Virus record (IMG/VR): IMGVR_UViG_2547132270_000005
Span: 1-21,218 of that record
Length of the DNA stretch: 21,218 bases
Reading direction: 5' to 3' (one strand)
From: a virus
Lineage: Duplodnaviria; Heunggongvirae; Uroviricota; Caudoviricetes
Shown here one piece after another: positions 1,233 through 21,218 of this stretch. Under the pieces are notes generated by a model that searched no databases, was not told the origin of the DNA, and worked only from the letters and a program-made list of their open reading frames with translations. A program made the translations under genes and the position numbers. Numbering within the stretch: the first letter of the stretch is position 1; every line of letters begins with the position of its first letter.

Positions 1233-1381
1233 AAAGTGCGCGCCTTGTACTGGCTGCCATCCTGCTGTTTCTGGTAGTGGCGGTGGATTTCACCGGACGG
1301 CTGATGTCGGTGCTGGCAGATGGTGTGCTGGTGGCGATGGCGCTGGTCGTGCTCCGGCCTTTACTGCGCAAATCTGAATAA
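1229..1381 (+). CDS. Small hydrophobic membrane peptide, 50 aa (MKSARLVLAAILLFLVVAVDFTGRLMSVLADGVLVAMALVVLRPLLRKSE)
   Basis: GTG start overlaps the TerB-like stop (GTGA). It is below the ORF track length cutoff. Two hydrophobic stretches, and a strong terminator follows. No RBS is visible other than coupling. Confidence 0.4.
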   Translation: MKSARLVLAAILLFLVVAVDFTGRLMSVLADGVLVAMALVVLRPLLRKSE

Positions 1382-1432
1382 CACCACACAAAAGGCATCT
1401 GCGGGTGCCTTTGACGGGGTGTTGTTTTTTTA

Positions 1433-1456
1433 CGGGCCGCTGGTGGCCCTTTTTTA
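1433..1456 (+). terminator. Rho-independent terminator (GGGCC-gctggt-GGCCC plus TTTTTT)
   Basis: Seen directly; a second hairpin (AAAGGCA...TGCCTTT, 1391-1413) with a T-run lies just upstream. It separates the TerB-like cassette from the lysis genes. Confidence 0.65.
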
Positions 1457-1474
1457 TTTACAGGAGAAAAAAGT

Positions 1475-1867
1475 ATGTCTGAACCCTTATCCGGTTCCGG
1501 TACGGCTGCGGCGCTCGGCGGGGCGACGGTGTACGGGCTGTTTACCGGAACGGATTTCGGGATTGTGTTTGGTGCGTTCGCCGGGGCGTTGTTTGTGGCA
1601 ACGATGCCGCAGCAGCTTTCAGCCTGGCGTGTGGCGGCGCATTTTCTGGTGTCGTTCATTGTTGGCGTGCTGGGAGCGCGTGTGCTGTCAGCCTGGATAG
1701 CGGCAAAAACAGGTTATGACGGTACATCGGCAGATGCGCTGTGCGCGGTGCTTGTCGCGGTAGTGTCGGTAAAGATTCTGTCGTTCATCCACCAGCAGGA
1801 TATCGCATCACTGGTGTCCGGTCTGTTCTCCCGCCTGCGGGGCGGAGGAGGTGGCAATGTTAAGTAA
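1475..1867 (+). CDS. Putative holin-like membrane protein (130 aa, multiple predicted transmembrane segments)
   Basis: Strong RBS (AGGAG) before the ATG at 1475. Gly/Ala-rich hydrophobic segments; sits immediately upstream of the endolysin gene. Holin call is by position and hydrophobicity, not motif. Confidence 0.55.
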   Translation: MSEPLSGSGTAAALGGATVYGLFTGTDFGIVFGAFAGALFVATMPQQLSAWRVAAHFLVSFIVGVLGARVLSAWIAAKTGYDGTSADALCAVLVAVVSVKILSFIHQQDIASLVSGLFSRLRGGGGGNVK

Positions 1868-2135
1868 CCTTCCCGACTTGCTGAATGTGGCGTTATGCAC
1901 GGTTATTGTGCTGACGCTCTTTTTTTATCGTCGCCGTGATTCCAGACATAAACCGCTGATGTCATGGCTGGCCTGGCTGCTGATGCTGCTTTATGCCTTT
2001 GCACCACTCAGCTATCTGTGCGGTCGCCCGTTAGCGGCGAACTGGCTGGCGGTGGGGCTTAATCTGCTGTTCTGCGTGTTGGTGATTCGCGCACGTGGGA
2101 ACGTTTCAAAAATCTTTGTATTACGAAGGCGCTGA
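1857..2135 (+). CDS. Second lysis-cassette membrane protein (about 92 aa; holin or antiholin-like)
   Basis: RBS GGAGGAGG precedes the ATG at 1857 (track ORF begins at 1851). Three hydrophobic stretches. The stop lies 2 nt before the endolysin start. Confidence 0.5.
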   Translation: MLSNLPDLLNVALCTVIVLTLFFYRRRDSRHKPLMSWLAWLLMLLYAFAPLSYLCGRPLAANWLAVGLNLLFCVLVIRARGNVSKIFVLRRR

Positions 2136-2136
2136 T

Positions 2137-2682
2137 ATGAAGTCGAAAGATGAAATTTTTGACGAAGTTCTGGGAAAAGAGGGCGGTTACGTCAATCACC
2201 CGGATGATAAAGGCGGACCGACAAAATGGGGTATTACGGAAAAAGTCGCCCGCGCTCACGGATATCAGGGCGATATGCGTGACCTGACACGCGAACAGGC
2301 GCTGGAAATCCTTGAGGCGGATTACTGGTTCGGACCACGCTTTGATCAGGTGGCCGCATTATCCTCTGATATTGCTGCAGAGTTGTGTGATACCGGTGTG
2401 AATATGGGGCCGTCCGTAGCATCGAAAATGCTCCAACGCTGGCTGAACGTTTTCAACCTGCAAGGCAAATTGTTCCCGGATATGGACGCAGACGGGCGTA
2501 TCGGCCCCCGCACGATTAATGCACTACGGACTTATCTGCAAAAACGCGGCAAAGACGGCGAACTGGTGATGCTGAAGGCGCTGAATTGCACGCAGGGCGA
2601 CCGCTATCTGGAGCTGGCAGAAAAACGCGAGGCCAACGAGTCGTTTGTCTACGGCTGGATGAAAGAGCGCGTAGCAGTTTAA
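2137..2682 (+). CDS. Endolysin, glycoside hydrolase family 108-like N-terminal domain with a C-terminal peptidoglycan-binding domain
   Basis: N-terminus DEIFDEVLGKEGGYVNHPDDKGGPTKWGIT matches the conserved GH108 N-terminal pattern (EGG...P.D.GG.T..GIT). The C-terminal region resembles a PG-binding domain. Start chosen at ATG 2137 (RBS GAAGG); the track ORF opens at 2095. Confidence 0.8.
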   Translation: MKSKDEIFDEVLGKEGGYVNHPDDKGGPTKWGITEKVARAHGYQGDMRDLTREQALEILEADYWFGPRFDQVAALSSDIAAELCDTGVNMGPSVASKMLQRWLNVFNLQGKLFPDMDADGRIGPRTINALRTYLQKRGKDGELVMLKALNCTQGDRYLELAEKREANESFVYGWMKERVAV

Positions 2683-2778
2683 AAACTGACGCTGAAGTGC
2701 TGAACACCCTCAACTCACGCAGGCTCTTTTCTGGGGTTACTATGAGCGAAAGTAAGGGGTACAGCATCAGATAGCAAA

Positions 2779-2810
2779 AACCCCGGCTGCTGGAACAGTC
2801 CGGGGTTTTT
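2779..2810 (+). terminator. Rho-independent terminator downstream of the endolysin gene (A-run, CCCCGG...CCGGGG hairpin, T-run)
   Basis: Seen directly: AAAAA-CCCCGGCTGCTGGAACAGTCCGGGG-TTTTT. The flanking A and T tracts could allow function on either strand. Confidence 0.65.
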
Positions 2811-2901
2811 AGTTTTCACGTCAAAGAGGAAATTGTGAGTAGTGAGTACGGAGAAAATCCTCGTGGGAAAGTATAAAAGATTCTTTTTGAGGTTGTCCAT
2901 T

Positions 2902-3015
2902 ATGAAAGGTATTGAAGTGGAAACTCCCGCGAGCCTTGATTTGACAAGGGCTGCGGCCTTTGCAATTCGCCTTGTGGCGGTCGCTGTTCTGATTTGGGCT
3001 GTGCGTTGGTGGTGA
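2902..3015 (+). CDS. Small membrane peptide, 37 aa (MKGIEVETPASLDLTRAAAFAIRLVAVAVLIWAVRWW)
   Basis: ATG start with a C-terminal hydrophobic helix; the stop sits 1 nt before the next ORF. Below the ORF track cutoff. Coding status uncertain. Confidence 0.35.
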   Translation: MKGIEVETPASLDLTRAAAFAIRLVAVAVLIWAVRWW

Positions 3016-3043
3016 TATGAGCCGAAAACACTGGACACACAGA

Positions 3044-3199
3044 ATGCCGCGAGCGGCGGCAAAATGGGCACTGGTAGCGATACTGGTGCCTTTTTTATTG
3101 GTGGGATGCGTTAGCCTGGATAAGGCGCGCCAGCTTTTCGATACCGCGTCTCAGGTCTGTCAGCTTATTGATGGCGTTCGACGGTGTACGCAGAACTGA
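3044..3199 (+). CDS. Small lipoprotein (signal peptide with lipobox LVGC; about 29-aa mature peptide); possible o-spanin-like, entericidin-like or exclusion lipoprotein
   Basis: From Met at 3044: positively charged n-region (MPRAAAK), hydrophobic core (WALVAILVPFLL), lipobox L-V-G-C. The track ORF begins at 3017. Confidence 0.5.
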   Translation: MPRAAAKWALVAILVPFLLVGCVSLDKARQLFDTASQVCQLIDGVRRCTQN

Positions 3200-3207
3200 T
3201 CACCAGC

Positions 3208-3244
3208 ATTATCGCAGCCCTTCAGTGTGAGGGGCTGCGATAAT
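3208..3244. repeat. Perfect 13-bp inverted repeat (ATTATCGCAGCCC ... GGGCTGCGATAAT) with an 11-nt loop
   Basis: Seen directly, immediately after the lipoprotein stop codon. No U-tract follows, so it is not a canonical intrinsic terminator. Confidence 0.6.
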
Positions 3245-3325
3245 GCCAAAGCTCGTTATCAGCACCCGCCACGCACCCAGCGCACTGGCCGATAGCGGGC
3301 TTTTTTATTCATAAAGCGAGTCTGT

Positions 3326-4114
3326 ATGAGCGAGAAATTGAAGATCGTCTATCGCCCTTTACAAGAACTGTCTCCGTATGCACACAACGCCAGAACACAC
3401 AGCCCTGAGCAGGTGGCACAACTGGTAGAAAGCATTAAGCAATTCGGCTGGACTAATCCGGTGCTGATTGATGAAAAGGGCGAAATTATTGCGGGTCACG
3501 GTCGCGTTATGGCGGCTGAAGTGCTCAAAATGGATTCCATTCCGGTCATCGTTCTGTCTGGTCTGACGGATGATCAGAAAAAGGCGTACCGCCTGGCAGA
3601 TAATCGCCTGCCGATGAATGCTGGCTGGGATGAAGAGCTGTTACGGATGGAGCTGTCGGACCTAATCAATGCTGATTTTGATGTCTCCCTGACAGGCTTC
3701 AGCCCGACAGAAATTGATGAACTGTTGACGGATGTTTTGCCCGGTACAGGAAATGAGGAGGAGCCGTATACGACGAAAATTGATACGCCTGTTTATGAGC
3801 CGTCGGGCGGTAAACCGGATATCAGTGAACTGTACGACGATACGAAAACTCAGAAGTTGATCAGCCGGATACGTTCGGCGTCCCTTGATCCTGATATTGA
3901 GAAATTCCTCCTGTGTGCGGCAGAACGTCACACGGTGTTTAATTTCAGCAGAATTGCGGACTATTACGCTCACGCCCCTGCTGAAATTCAGTGCCTTTTC
4001 GAGGAGTCGGCGCTGGTGATCATTGATTATCAGCAGGCTATTGAAAATGGATTTGTCCGGATGACGCAGCGCATGGTGGAGATCATGCATGGCGGGGAGG
4101 AGGAATATGCGTGA
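3326..4114 (+). CDS. ParB-like (ParB/Srx fold) nuclease-domain protein, 262 aa
   Basis: The N-terminal roughly 100 aa (YRPLQELSPYAHNARTHSPEQVAQLVESIKQFGWTNPVLIDEKGEIIAGHGRVMAA...) fits the ParB N-terminal domain pattern, including the GxGR-type motif. The C-terminal half is unassigned. Confidence 0.7.
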   Translation: MSEKLKIVYRPLQELSPYAHNARTHSPEQVAQLVESIKQFGWTNPVLIDEKGEIIAGHGRVMAAEVLKMDSIPVIVLSGLTDDQKKAYRLADNRLPMNAGWDEELLRMELSDLINADFDVSLTGFSPTEIDELLTDVLPGTGNEEEPYTTKIDTPVYEPSGGKPDISELYDDTKTQKLISRIRSASLDPDIEKFLLCAAERHTVFNFSRIADYYAHAPAEIQCLFEESALVIIDYQQAIENGFVRMTQRMVEIMHGGEEEYA

Positions 4115-5039
4115 TGATTTTTGCGCCTTTATTCTGACTCACGGGCGACCGGACAAAGTTCTGACTTACCGGACGTTGCGTCGTGCTGGCTATACCGGGA
4201 AAATTTTTATCGTTGTTGATGATGAAGATAAGACACGGCATCAGTACATGGCTGAATTTGGTGAACAGGTGCTGGTGTTTTCCAAAGCCGATATCGCCAG
4301 TCGTTTTGACGAAGCCGATAATTTCGGTGACCGGCGCTCAATTTTTTACGCCCGTAATGCCTGTTTCGACCTGGCAAAACTGGTCGGGTGTAAATACTTC
4401 ATTCAGCTCGATGATGATTATCACGAGTTCCAGTTTCGGGTGGATCGCAACTATGACCAGGCCTATTTTCCGATAAGGAAACTGGATGCGATCCTTTCTG
4501 AAATGCTGGCGTATTACGAATCAATACCCGCGCTTTCCATCGCTATGTCGCAGGGCGGGGATTTTCTTGGTGACAATGGCGGCCATGCTTCGTGGGTGAA
4601 ACGCAAGGCAATGAACAGCTTTATCTGTTCGGTTGATCGACCGTTCTCATTCATGGGGCGCATTAACGAGGATGTGAATACGTACACGAATCTCGGTCGC
4701 CGTGGTGAATTGTTTATGACGATCGGTGCTGTCCAGTTAGGGCAGAAACAGACGCAGAAAAACAGCGGCGGAATGACCGAGCTGTATCTGGATTCCGGAA
4801 CCTATGTTAAAAGTTTTTACTCCGTCATGCATGCGCCGTCGTGCGTAAAAATCTCACTGATGGGCGCCAGCCATAAACGCATTCACCATCAGGTCACCTG
4901 GAACAACGCTGCAGTAAAAATCCTTCACGAAAAATACAGGAAGAAGACACCCTGCATATCAATGGGGGTGACAAATGATTCCGTATTCGAAAGTCGAGTC
5001 TCTGGCAGCGTGCCGGATGACTGCACAACAAATCGCTGA
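4107..5039 (+). CDS. Hypothetical enzyme, possibly glycosyltransferase-A-like (acidic motifs IFIVVDDED and IQLDDDYHEF)
   Basis: RBS GGAGGAGG before the ATG at 4107 (track ORF opens at 4089); the ParB-like stop falls inside its first codons. Motif spacing resembles the GT-A/GT2 DxD arrangement. No PP-loop or methyltransferase motifs were seen. Function is inference only. Confidence 0.55.
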   Translation: MRDDFCAFILTHGRPDKVLTYRTLRRAGYTGKIFIVVDDEDKTRHQYMAEFGEQVLVFSKADIASRFDEADNFGDRRSIFYARNACFDLAKLVGCKYFIQLDDDYHEFQFRVDRNYDQAYFPIRKLDAILSEMLAYYESIPALSIAMSQGGDFLGDNGGHASWVKRKAMNSFICSVDRPFSFMGRINEDVNTYTNLGRRGELFMTIGAVQLGQKQTQKNSGGMTELYLDSGTYVKSFYSVMHAPSCVKISLMGASHKRIHHQVTWNNAAVKILHEKYRKKTPCISMGVTNDSVFESRVSGSVPDDCTTNR

Positions 5040-19713: not shown

Positions 19714-20382
19714 ATGTCACTTAATTACTTTGGACAAGCTTTCAAACTGGCGTTTGAAGTATCGCCCATTCTTTTAGTTGATGGCATAGCGTCGAAAATT
19801 CCCGGAGGGGTGATGCCGATTGCTGTTTTGACCGAAGGCCTAAGCATTGCGAATGGTCTGCTGCATGGCGAGATACGCACACGCTCGATGGCGGCATTTA
19901 CCCCGATGGCGGGGACAACGTTAGTCCAGCAGGATATTTGCAACCTGAATTTCTATAACCAGGTAACGGCAGCGAATGCGACCGTCAGGAAGCCTAACCG
20001 GGTAGTCATGCAGATGATCCGTCCGGCATCAACGGAGGACGGTGGTTACACCACTAAGGGGATGACGTTTACGGCGCTGAAAATGGCGCTTGATATGCAT
20101 AACCAGTATGGCGGTTGCTACACCGTTCTGACTCCCTCGTTTATCTACACGCGCTGTCTGATGCGGTCGTTTATCGATACATCCGGTTTCTCTGAGCAGA
20201 ACAAGCAGGTTCAGCACACCTGGCAGATTGAGTTTGAGCAACCATTATCGTCTGTCGAACAAACGGTAAAGACGCTGGCGAGCGTTCTGGATAAATTTGA
20301 TAAAGGGATGCCGTCAGACGGGCCGTTATCGTGGTCAGGTATCCAGAACCAGGTCGTGCAGGAGTTTGGTATTGGCTTATGA
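19714..20382 (+). CDS. Putative distal tail / baseplate-associated protein (222 aa)
   Basis: Begins 4 nt after the tape measure stop; followed by overlapping small genes. Assigned by position only. Confidence 0.5.
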   Translation: MSLNYFGQAFKLAFEVSPILLVDGIASKIPGGVMPIAVLTEGLSIANGLLHGEIRTRSMAAFTPMAGTTLVQQDICNLNFYNQVTAANATVRKPNRVVMQMIRPASTEDGGYTTKGMTFTALKMALDMHNQYGGCYTVLTPSFIYTRCLMRSFIDTSGFSEQNKQVQHTWQIEFEQPLSSVEQTVKTLASVLDKFDKGMPSDGPLSWSGIQNQVVQEFGIGL

Positions 20383-20645
20383 CAACGTTAATTCCTTTCA
20401 AACCAGACGGGCGAGGTCCGTTTCAGTTCACGGCCAGAATCGGAGAATATGAAACATTTGCTCGCGTTCCGTTTAATCTGTATGCAAATCGTTACTACCT
20501 GGAACTGAAAGACAGTTCAGGCGACGTGATTGTTTACATGCCGCTGATTGCTTCCCCTGATGGTTACGACATCAATCTGGCGCTGCCTTGCTCACCGGGG
20601 AAACTTGTTTTTCGCGAAAGTACGAATCAGTTTGAGGTTTCGTAA
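20379..20645 (+). CDS. Small tail/baseplate protein (about 88 aa)
   Basis: ATG at 20379 overlaps the upstream stop (ATGA); the track ORF opens at 20331. Stop overlaps the next start (TAATG). Confidence 0.45.
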   Translation: MTTLIPFKPDGRGPFQFTARIGEYETFARVPFNLYANRYYLELKDSSGDVIVYMPLIASPDGYDINLALPCSPGKLVFRESTNQFEVS

Positions 20646-21218
20646 TGCGTTATTACCGACTGGAAATTATTAATCCTAAAACAGGAAAGCCGCCAGTGGA
20701 TAGCAATGGAAAACCCATTGGACCTTTTGATACCAGTGAAACACCAGGATGTGGGTTGCATGTTGAATTTGACTTTGAAGTAACCGGCCTGGATGTAGTC
20801 TGTTCGGGCACGATGCTGACGATCTATGGATTACCAATTGACATGCTGAAGCAAAGTGTAAGCTTGCAGGGGTGTCTGGTCCGTATGAAAGCCGGTTTTG
20901 CTCCGGGGTTACCACTGGCAAACAAGGATCAACAAGGTGAGATAATTTATGGTGAAATTTATCTGGCCTACGCCAACTGGATTGGCACAAACCAGACTTT
21001 AAATCTGGTCATTAACCCCACCATACGCAAAACCGATGACGGTAAGCCGTTCTTTATCGAGGGTGAAGGGCGAACAGGGGAAAAGGTGGGTGATGTTATC
21101 TCCCGCGCGTTGCAAAAGGCATTTCCGAATAAATTGATTGATTGTACCGTCAGCGACAGCCTCGTTTTGCCAGAGCCGTGGAATGGAACCTACGAAGACA
21201 TTGGTTCACTGGCGATGG
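20645..21218 (+). CDS. Tail/baseplate protein, 5' partial (191 codons with no stop before the window end)
   Basis: Hand translation from ATG 20645 (MRYYRLEIINPKTGKPP...) runs open to the last base. Absent from the ORF track because no stop codon is present. Confidence 0.5.
   Translation, partial: MRYYRLEIINPKTGKPPVDSNGKPIGPFDTSETPGCGLHVEFDFEVTGLDVVCSGTMLTIYGLPIDMLKQSVSLQGCLVRMKAGFAPGLPLANKDQQGEIIYGEIYLAYANWIGTNQTLNLVINPTIRKTDDGKPFFIEGEGRTGEKVGDVISRALQKAFPNKLIDCTVSDSLVLPEPWNGTYEDIGSLAM

Follow-up and report, generated by a model that had tools for sequence, protein, structure and literature searches.

The window analysed here is a 21,218-nucleotide (nt) stretch of viral DNA (Caudoviricetes; positions 1 to 21,218 of IMG/VR record IMGVR_UViG_2547132270_000005). 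It carries a phage late region, where a lysis cassette is followed by two small open reading frames (ORFs), named ORF-A and ORF-B, then by ParB-like and glycosyltransferase genes and by the terminase genes. ORF-B encodes a predicted lipoprotein of 60 amino acids (aa). The lysis cassette ends with this conserved gene, and ORF-B and the two-component spanins are alternative occupants of one slot. On balance we favour the view that ORF-B is the third functional gene of the cassette and that its product is a putative stand-alone lipoprotein which performs the outer-membrane step of lysis, or is required for it, in spanin-less phages.

Position and sequence of ORF-B

The comparisons draw on 88 loci recovered with ORF-B as bait (the ORF-B-seeded set) and on 160 loci recovered with two endolysins as bait (the endolysin-seeded set). 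A scan of genome contigs yielded three loci only. Two holin genes and an endolysin gene precede ORF-B in every ORF-B-seeded locus (88/88), and the holin-holin-endolysin order of the window recurs in about 220 related loci. Together with these, eight divergent lineages have ORF-B behind a holin-endolysin cassette. ORF-B starts 14-18 nt past the stop codon of an M15 endolysin gene in 45 of the 88, while the remaining loci carry variable insertions of 250-1178 nt at this point. The gap between endolysin and ORF-B is an insertion hot spot, occupied according to the locus by KilA-N, a 93-aa gene, small transmembrane peptides or a lipopolysaccharide phosphatase.

Seven divergent homologs could be traced to contigs (L089, L090, L092, L255, L257, L259 and L261). 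In all seven, ORF-B lies 0-10 nt after the endolysin stop codon or overlaps the endolysin gene. The accompanying holins represent three families (Phage_holin_3_1 or holin_8/holin_3_7), and the endolysins, of at least two families, are GH108, Peptidase_M15_4 or M15-like. Lambdoid (Q-containing) and Mu-like phages are among the sources of these homologs, as are other phages, and the Q antiterminator is present upstream of ORF-B in L090 and L257. ORF-B and its lysis genes are associated with at least five packaging or morphogenesis modules, including lambda-like, phiP27-like, Mu-like and Terminase_2-type packaging. Since ORF-B adjoins the endolysin in such divergent lineages, it travels with the lysis genes whatever their type or the virion module. 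The ancestral layout is that of an ORF-B co-oriented with the endolysin gene and starting 3-18 nt after its stop codon, or overlapping it. No other lipoprotein or Rz-like gene is located within 10 kb on either side of ORF-B, and a lipobox scan of this range found no other candidate outer-membrane spanin subunit (o-spanin). No plus-strand sigma-70-like promoter was found between endolysin and ORF-B by a consensus scan, which is a crude one. In eight loci bor lies on the opposite strand just downstream of ORF-B, an arrangement recalling that of lambda, where bor lies downstream of Rz.

The features of the window are as follows:

807-1232: TerB-like gene
1229-1381: 50-aa hydrophobic ORF between the TerB-like gene and the holins
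1475-1867, plus strand: Phage_holin_8 holin (PF16931; Pfam and PHROG matches)
1851-2135, plus strand: Phage_holin_3_7 holin (PF05449; Pfam and PHROG matches)
2137-2682, plus strand: endolysin with GH108 and PG_binding_3 domains (Pfam and PHROG matches)
2776-2810: bidirectional intrinsic terminator with perfect 11-nt arms, an A-run and a T-run on its flanks
2863-3015, plus strand: ORF-A, predicted 50-aa tail-anchored membrane peptide (phrog_4493, phrog_1115, phrog_3246)
2870-2899, minus strand: promoter-like site (TGGACA-18-TATACT)
3017-3199, plus strand: ORF-B, predicted 60-aa prolipoprotein (phrog_7528; lipobox LVGC31)
3066-3097, plus strand: terminator-like hairpin with U6 inside ORF-B (terminator scan)
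3206-3246: near-perfect palindrome or hairpin with 19-nt arms and a 3-nt loop
3251-3310, plus strand: intrinsic terminator, a long hairpin followed by UUUUUU, between the palindrome and the ParB-like gene
3326-4114: ParB-like gene (N-terminal-domain protein)
4089-5039: TET-associated glycosyltransferase gene (PF20691)

The ORF-B product begins with a long and basic n-region (17 aa with five K/R plus two H), followed by the h-region ALVAILVPFLL and the lipobox L-V-G-C31. Its mature peptide is amphipathic and carries an invariant C48-x8-C57 motif. The window had previously been read from its sequence alone (the sequence-only reading), with a mature part of about 29 aa and two cysteines. The two further cysteines are indeed present, and the length is 30 aa when the lipid-modified Cys is counted. 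The same organization is found across the family: an n-region of 13-23 residues with 4-7 K/R, then the h-region, lipobox, amphipathic segment and invariant C-x8-C. Mature members are 24-40 residues long, with a net charge of -1 to +2, predicted helical and proline-free. An Asp at position +2 holds lipoproteins in the inner membrane (Lol-avoidance rule). This position is V, A, T, S, G or E in the family and never Asp, from which sorting to the outer membrane is predicted. One E. coli allele, P0001 (70 aa), carries a tandem duplication of ten residues (QLFDTASQVC) that introduces a fourth cysteine into the mature peptide.

ORF-B matches phrog_7528 (E 7e-36), a PHROG family whose function is not annotated, and has no match in Pfam, NCBIfam, PADLOC or PDB sequences. 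The family is small and enterobacterial. A word-indexed search of 5.8 billion proteins recovered 153 clusters at 90% identity. When 1.84 billion representatives were searched exhaustively with a hidden Markov model (HMM), no more than 21 clusters at 50% identity emerged. Of 5426 complete E. coli genomes, 342 carry the gene, among them enterotoxigenic E. coli H10407. Variation among its 92 unique alleles is mostly synonymous, as for a translated gene under purifying selection. ORF-B is thus a real conserved gene and no chance ORF; nor is ORF-A, which belongs to a PHROG family as well (phrog_4493). A dual start at M1 and M10, in the manner of a holin/antiholin pair, was considered and set aside: M10 is not conserved and is replaced by I or T in 9 of 53 alleles. 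A lysis cassette with an unannotated ORF-B, 84-94% identical to E. coli prophage versions, was also observed in Actinobacillus phage vB_Apl-pPE4 (L003, 2185-4183). The recorded host of this phage is Actinobacillus pleuropneumoniae, an assignment that may merit checking, as may the purity of the isolate.

ORF-B and the spanins

Of the 160 endolysin-seeded loci, 125 carry ORF-B without a spanin, five carry lambda-type Rz/Rz1 without ORF-B, about nine carry a P2-type overlapped spanin without ORF-B, and none carries both; the loci are closely related prophages and these 125/14/0 counts correspond to perhaps 8-10 independent events. About 11 others of the 160 include neither ORF-B nor a spanin and show toxin-gene insertions or deletions. 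Behind the M15 endolysin, the Rz/Rz1 pair of L005 has the same spacing as ORF-B of L006. Only two phages combine ORF-B with Rz/Rz1, and their ORF-B is N-terminally truncated in one (L005) and frameshifted in the other (GER2). Such exclusivity is what functional equivalence of ORF-B and spanins predicts. Phages devoid of a recognizable spanin are not rare: 91 of 677 surveyed genomes of phages of Gram-negative hosts (~13%) have no identifiable one (Kongari et al. 2018, PMC6139136).

Our literature searches found no experimental work on the ORF-B gene. One member has been catalogued. Phage phiP27 is listed in SpaninDB as carrying a "separated" two-component spanin, with an inner-membrane subunit (i-spanin) at 20348-20542 and an o-spanin at 20706-20861 (Kongari et al. 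2018, PMC6139136). Each of its two subunits is the sole member of its family, and at 62 residues their combined periplasmic length is the shortest of the database (PMC6139136). The o-spanin entry is the ORF-B homolog of phiP27. The i-spanin entry (3671-3865 of L002) is a 64-codon ORF with a TTG start. It occurs in no other locus of the set and runs antisense to an ORF of 90 codons with a phrog_36812 match and protein-level conservation in L060. Being confined to phiP27 and lying opposite a conserved ORF, the called i-spanin is probably an annotation artefact. It was also rejected as a general partner of ORF-B, being found in one locus only. ORF-B has been catalogued so far only computationally, and probably with the wrong partner. 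The sequence-only reading had allowed that homology might reveal an unusual yet genuine spanin pair: the phiP27 homolog is catalogued as an o-spanin, while the i-spanin paired with it appears spurious.

The catalogue entry raises the question whether ORF-B could be a conventional o-spanin, fusing both membranes together with ORF-A, the phiP27 i-spanin or a product of an unlinked gene. Apart from the SpaninDB listing, the translational coupling of ORF-A and ORF-B in the window (TGATATG) would fit such a pair, as would a protein with an N-terminal transmembrane domain encoded downstream of ORF-B in L257. The ORF-B cysteines are reminiscent, too, of the disulfides formed between molecules of Rz/Rz1 (Kongari et al. 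2018, PMC6139136). Two properties of an o-subunit are found in ORF-B, namely the outer-membrane lipoprotein signal and the location in the lysis cassette. Neither a cognate i-spanin nor a relation to a known o-spanin family was found, however. The helix of ORF-A is C-terminal and would leave almost nothing in the periplasm; ORF-A is moreover missing from about half of the loci and also occurs upstream of Rz/Rz1. The minimal cassettes of L090, L092, L255 and L259 contain no i-spanin-type plus-strand ORF and no adjacent transmembrane candidate. ORF-B shows no homology to lambda-type Rz1 past the signal peptide (hhalign probability 1.9%), and its mature peptide contains no proline, in contrast to the proline-rich Rz1 of L004 and L005. 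A unimolecular spanin does not fit either, as ORF-B has no second hydrophobic segment and ORF-A differs from it in frame and precedes it, the wrong order for such a protein. A conventional o-spanin thus seems most improbable, in agreement with the earlier statement that the two genes are not a canonical Rz/Rz1 pair.

Two further observations concern this region of the cassettes. The L257 protein (4461-4895; 144 aa, N-terminal transmembrane helix), encoded 245 nt downstream of the divergent ORF-B there, is absent from the other lineages, none of which showed any i-spanin-like candidate. In L210 and L222, ORF-B is replaced by a gene pair about 100-1300 nt after the GH108 endolysin, which we take, from recognition by eye and with no search made, to resemble the A and B subunits of type II heat-labile enterotoxin.

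The hairpin inside ORF-B and the proposed role

The terminator-like hairpin at 3066-3097 comprises 11 pairs and a GCGA loop followed by U6 (folding free energy, dG, -17.5 kcal/mol; z -5.8). It sits in codons 17-27 of ORF-B, which encode the core of the signal peptide. Synonymous diversity is 0.028 in codons 18-26 vs 0.169 over the remaining codons (p = 0.003), and the rare codons GTA and ATA are fixed in the hairpin region. Hairpin and U-run are kept in the divergent L089, L092, L257, L259 and L261 despite changed flanking codons; L090 has the hairpin without the U-run and the Mu-like L255 has no hairpin. Covariation is weak (95.7% of cells paired, only two double-sided changes, shuffles not exceeded), so that the case for this hairpin rests on the depleted synonymous variation. 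The embedded hairpin partly accounts for the strong conservation of the ORF-B signal peptide. Its structure and position suggest an attenuator that would block read-through expression unless the polymerase is Q-modified.

In the proposed scheme, ORF-B would be transcribed late with the holin and endolysin genes by a terminator-resistant polymerase. Its product would be exported by Sec, lipid-modified, cleaved and taken to the inner leaflet of the outer membrane. After removal of the wall by the endolysin, the 29-residue amphipathic helix with its C-x8-C disulfide, forming either an intramolecular loop or an intermolecular bridge, would weaken the outer membrane. The protein would act without an inner-membrane partner and would be nearer to a lipid-anchored disruptin or a peptide of the colicin-lysis-protein type than to a membrane-fusing spanin. 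Insertion of the lipid-anchored amphipathic helix, disulfide-dependent oligomerisation and phospholipase activation, as with colicin lysis proteins, are candidate mechanisms at the level of conjecture.

Several points weigh against this scheme, in addition to the small number of independent events behind the counts given above. The proposed function is deduced from position and distribution. The exclusivity with spanins could also stem from spanin acquisition physically replacing the ORF-B segment, and the cassettes with neither gene indicate that ORF-B may be dispensable. With 29 residues the peptide cannot reach across the periplasm, nor was a partner found; the fusion mechanism of spanins is therefore inapplicable, and any other mechanism is conjectural. 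The mature peptide is near neutral, unlike the cationic disruptin. The terminator at 2776-2810 together with the hairpin inside ORF-B would limit its expression unless the polymerase is antiterminated. Finally, the AlphaFold2 model, a single long helix with a predicted local distance difference test (pLDDT) score of 67, is uninformative and was not used.

ORF-B shares features with several known systems. Like the o-subunits of two-component spanins (lambda Rz1, P2 LysC), it is a lipoprotein encoded by the last gene of the cassette, in the same slot and with conserved periplasmic cysteines. It differs from them by the lack of a credible i-spanin and by a mature part of 24-40 aa that is predicted helical, proline-free and cannot bridge the periplasm. 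The unimolecular spanin T1 gp11 is likewise a single gene product for the outer-membrane step with an N-terminal lipobox; it adds a periplasmic domain of ~100 aa as well as a transmembrane domain at its C-terminus, whereas ORF-B ends 29 residues after the lipid-modified Cys. The disruptin phiKT gp28 is not known to have a lipobox or signal peptide. It is described as a cationic antimicrobial peptide, short and amphipathic, from a spanin-less phage and proposed to break the outer membrane without fusion (bioRxiv 10.1101/515445). ORF-B is instead predicted to be lipid-anchored and exported by the lipoprotein pathway, and its net charge of -1 to +2 is not that of a disruptin.

ORF-B also resembles in size the colicin lysis or bacteriocin release proteins (PF02402). 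These are prolipoproteins of ~45-52 aa whose mature lipopeptides of ~28-33 aa permeabilise the envelope, with a quasi-lysis that depends on outer-membrane phospholipase A, and the pCloDF13 release protein has a signal peptide with a function of its own. ORF-B has a comparable mature size (30 aa) and an unusually conserved signal peptide. The PF02402 HMM gives no match for ORF-B of the window, and a single divergent member matches it faintly, in the lipobox only (E 0.07). ORF-B differs in being phage-borne, coupled to holin and endolysin, and endowed with the C-x8-C motif. Its signal-peptide conservation is also partly explained at the nucleotide level by the embedded hairpin.

Entericidin B, T5 Llp and Cor are small envelope lipoproteins too, and the sequence-only reading had pointed to them on grounds of size and lipobox. 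Entericidin genes form a chromosomal locus, while llp and cor adjoin receptor-binding or tail genes. ORF-B matches neither entericidin (PF08085) nor Llp, Cor or Bor in Pfam, NCBIfam or PHROG, and its linkage to lysis genes and exclusivity with spanins speak against this assignment. A related possibility is that ORF-B masks receptors or excludes superinfection late in infection, saving the progeny from envelope debris, the phages being simply spanin-less. T5 Llp is a small lipoprotein with a disulfide, and ORF-B is itself a small, predicted outer-membrane lipoprotein with conserved cysteines, too short for a spanin. Related cassettes without ORF-B or spanin do exist, as do other spanin-less phages (the ~13% of PMC6139136). 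Yet no HMM of any lipoprotein family matches ORF-B, and across at least five morphogenesis modules the gene is linked to lysis rather than to tail or receptor-binding genes. Nor would such a function predict the decay or loss of ORF-B exactly where a spanin is present, and we hold it to be quite unlikely.

The proposal of a stand-alone lysis lipoprotein can be extended, more tentatively, to a further class of phage outer-membrane lysis proteins. Members would be lipid-anchored peptides of ~30 residues that alone replace the spanin complex. The enterobacterial phages concerned would be phiP27-like or Stx2e/Stx2k-converting, with some Mu-like ones in addition. Their toxic expression would be curbed by the hairpin in the signal-peptide codons, which only Q-antiterminated late transcription would read through. 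We regard this wider formulation as possible rather than probable.

Neighbouring elements and significance of ORF-B

All the features listed by the sequence-only reading were found in the window, with corrections to the details of terminator, peptide, lipoprotein and palindrome. ORF-A, ORF-B and the palindrome are nevertheless three independent elements and not one unit. The terminator announced after the endolysin is a bidirectional hairpin with arms at 2776-2786 and 2800-2810 (AAAAACCCCGG / CCGGGGTTTTT; dG -22.3 kcal/mol, z -4.75) bordered by an A-run and a T-run. It forms the 5' edge of the ORF-A module: the homology block common with phiSTEC1575-Stx2k (2777-3245, with hairpins at both ends) starts here. 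The same hairpin also precedes ORF-A variants, as well as the small-peptide cluster upstream of Rz in L004.

ORF-A had been described as a 37-aa peptide with a C-terminal transmembrane helix. An ATG ORF of this length exists (2902-3015), it is the form annotated by PGAP, and its C-terminal hydrophobic stretch is RAAAFAIRLVAVAVLIWAV (mean Kyte-Doolittle value 2.05). Translation most likely begins at GTG 2863, with a GGAG Shine-Dalgarno sequence ahead of it at 2851-2854, which gives 50 aa. The phrog_4493 profile aligns from this GTG (82 bits vs 59 bits for the 37-aa form), and ORF-A variants of 45% identity start with ATG at exactly this codon (MRKYK.../MEKYK...). A stop codon bounds the frame upstream in phage GER2, where the GTG is thus the first possible start and gives the longest form. 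The transmembrane helix spans approximately residues 29-49 of 50 and ends in RWW; there is no signal peptide. The net charge is +5, mostly N-terminal. With five positive charges at the N-terminus and a C-terminal helix, ORF-A is predicted to be tail-anchored with essentially nothing in the periplasm. It does not have the N-terminal transmembrane domain and C-terminal periplasmic coiled coil of an i-spanin. As a candidate i-spanin it was discarded for this topology, for its absence from half the loci and for its co-occurrence with Rz/Rz1.

The earlier pairing of peptide and lipoprotein does not hold across the loci. ORF-A is missing from about half of the ORF-B loci (the 45 of 88 in which ORF-B directly follows the endolysin), and it also stands directly upstream of complete Rz/Rz1 pairs, with an identical TGATATG junction. 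In the window its stop codon and the ORF-B start are 1 nt apart. Its end, TGG TGG TGA, overlaps the Shine-Dalgarno-like GGTGGTGA, which precedes ORF-B even in loci without ORF-A. ORF-A exists in several variants, sometimes accompanied by one to three further small transmembrane peptides. It is an optional accessory insertion that separates the endolysin from the outer-membrane gene and is equipped with a bidirectional terminator of its own. In L004 (3019-3568), L007 and L061, two to four different small single-pass membrane peptides of 34-60 aa (phrog_1115, 4906, 12997) are arrayed behind the endolysin terminator and ahead of the outer-membrane lysis gene. Their number varies between prophages.

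On the minus strand, the site at 2899-2870 matches the promoter consensus at 10 of 12 positions and is the only promoter-like site in 1300-3500; its hexamer spacing is kept in divergent ORF-A variants. As a weak lead, this site and the terminator could give an antisense RNA of ~90 nt over the Shine-Dalgarno sequence and start of ORF-A, ending at 2776-2810. Such an RNA over the ribosome-binding site could be likened to type I toxin systems or to P22 sar/ant. A match to the Rfam sar RNA at 2773-2876 on the minus strand is sub-threshold (23.3 bits vs a gathering score of 43) and weaker still in L061. No other known RNA family was found for the hairpins, and this match, largely due to the terminator hairpin, was retained as a lead only. 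A minus-strand ORF of 118 aa (2715-3071) was dismissed, since it crosses the terminator and is interrupted by variable insertions.

These features of ORF-A bear on the possibility that ORF-A and ORF-B form a moron expressed from the prophage, such as an entericidin-like toxin/antidote or an envelope stress or virulence function, landed in the hot spot behind the endolysin. The hairpin-bounded block common with phiSTEC1575-Stx2k, the clear hot spot itself, the type-I-toxin-like size of ORF-A and its possible antisense RNA would all agree with this. Such an origin may fit ORF-A but not ORF-B, which in both the commonest and the most divergent layouts stands too close to the endolysin for a promoter to fit between them. 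Terminators flank the ORF-A/ORF-B block, and the consensus scan, a crude one, detected no plus-strand promoter-like site. GC content is unremarkable (0.54 for ORF-B vs 0.51 for the window), and there is no entericidin or PADLOC match. For the pair as a whole a moron is very unlikely.

The palindrome downstream of ORF-B had been described as a perfect inverted repeat of 13 bp. Its arms (3206-3224 and 3228-3246) are in fact 19 nt long with one mismatch (95% complementary) around a 3-nt loop (dG -34.6 kcal/mol, z -8.5). As the sequence-only reading had stated, it is not itself an intrinsic terminator: the stem is followed by CAAAGCUCG and not by a U-tract. The hairpin at 3251-3310, ~5 nt further on, does have the structure of one (dG -22.2 kcal/mol, z -3.7) and is conserved along with the palindrome in L006, L014 and L030. 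The palindrome is present in 80 of 255 loci and is not tied to the lipoprotein gene. It lies 7 nt after the ORF-B stop codon in only 3 of 89 ORF-B-seeded loci, and elsewhere 285 or 475 nt further downstream (range 285-475 nt), after another small gene. In contrast, the ParB-like start follows it at a distance of 80 nt in all 41 loci that have both. Comparison with L006, L014 and L030 shows that a deletion in the lineage of the window joined ORF-B to the palindrome, which is a conserved stem-loop of the downstream module junction.

ParB-family proteins bind palindromic sites, and the fixed distance of 80 nt and the absence of a U-tract would be compatible with a binding site, for instance for the ParB-like protein, rather than an RNA element. 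However, 39 loci have the palindrome without a detected ParB-like start; some of these loci are truncated, while L001 and L005 clearly have a different gene next. In ten others the palindrome is missing although the ParB-like gene is there. In its commonest form the palindrome is imperfect, with a 2-nt internal mismatch. Pairing has been restored independently by double changes, in the left arm in the window and in the right arm in 11 loci. These changes favour a hairpin function, even though they fit a symmetric site as well. The palindrome always begins ~5 nt past a stop codon, and a true terminator comes next. This layout is read as that of a hairpin stabilising or processing the 3' end of the transcript, and a protein-binding site appears unlikely.

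Among the other genes of the window, the ParB-like and glycosyltransferase genes (3326-5039), located between the lysis and terminase genes, form a DNA-modification-type module; no TET/JBP gene was seen adjoining them. At the position of the 1229-1381 ORF, PGAP calls a DUF3927 family protein in related loci, and this ORF is found in ORF-B-type as well as Rz-type cassettes. Related prophages carry several transfer RNA genes upstream of the lysis cassette, and L061 carries a hok/sok-type sok antitoxin RNA at 2394-2569 (Rfam RF01794, 121.7 bits).

Disruption of the outer membrane is the least understood step of phage lysis. If ORF-B works alone, no smaller outer-membrane lysis factor would be known, and its mechanism would be distinct from membrane fusion. 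SpaninDB would then need a correction, since the phiP27 "two-component spanin" appears to consist of one real gene and an artefact. ORF-B would also offer a simple and genetically testable system in the prophages of Shiga-toxin and enterotoxigenic E. coli. A lipopeptide of ~30 residues that breaks the outer membrane from inside would be of interest for the design of lysis cassettes and antimicrobials.

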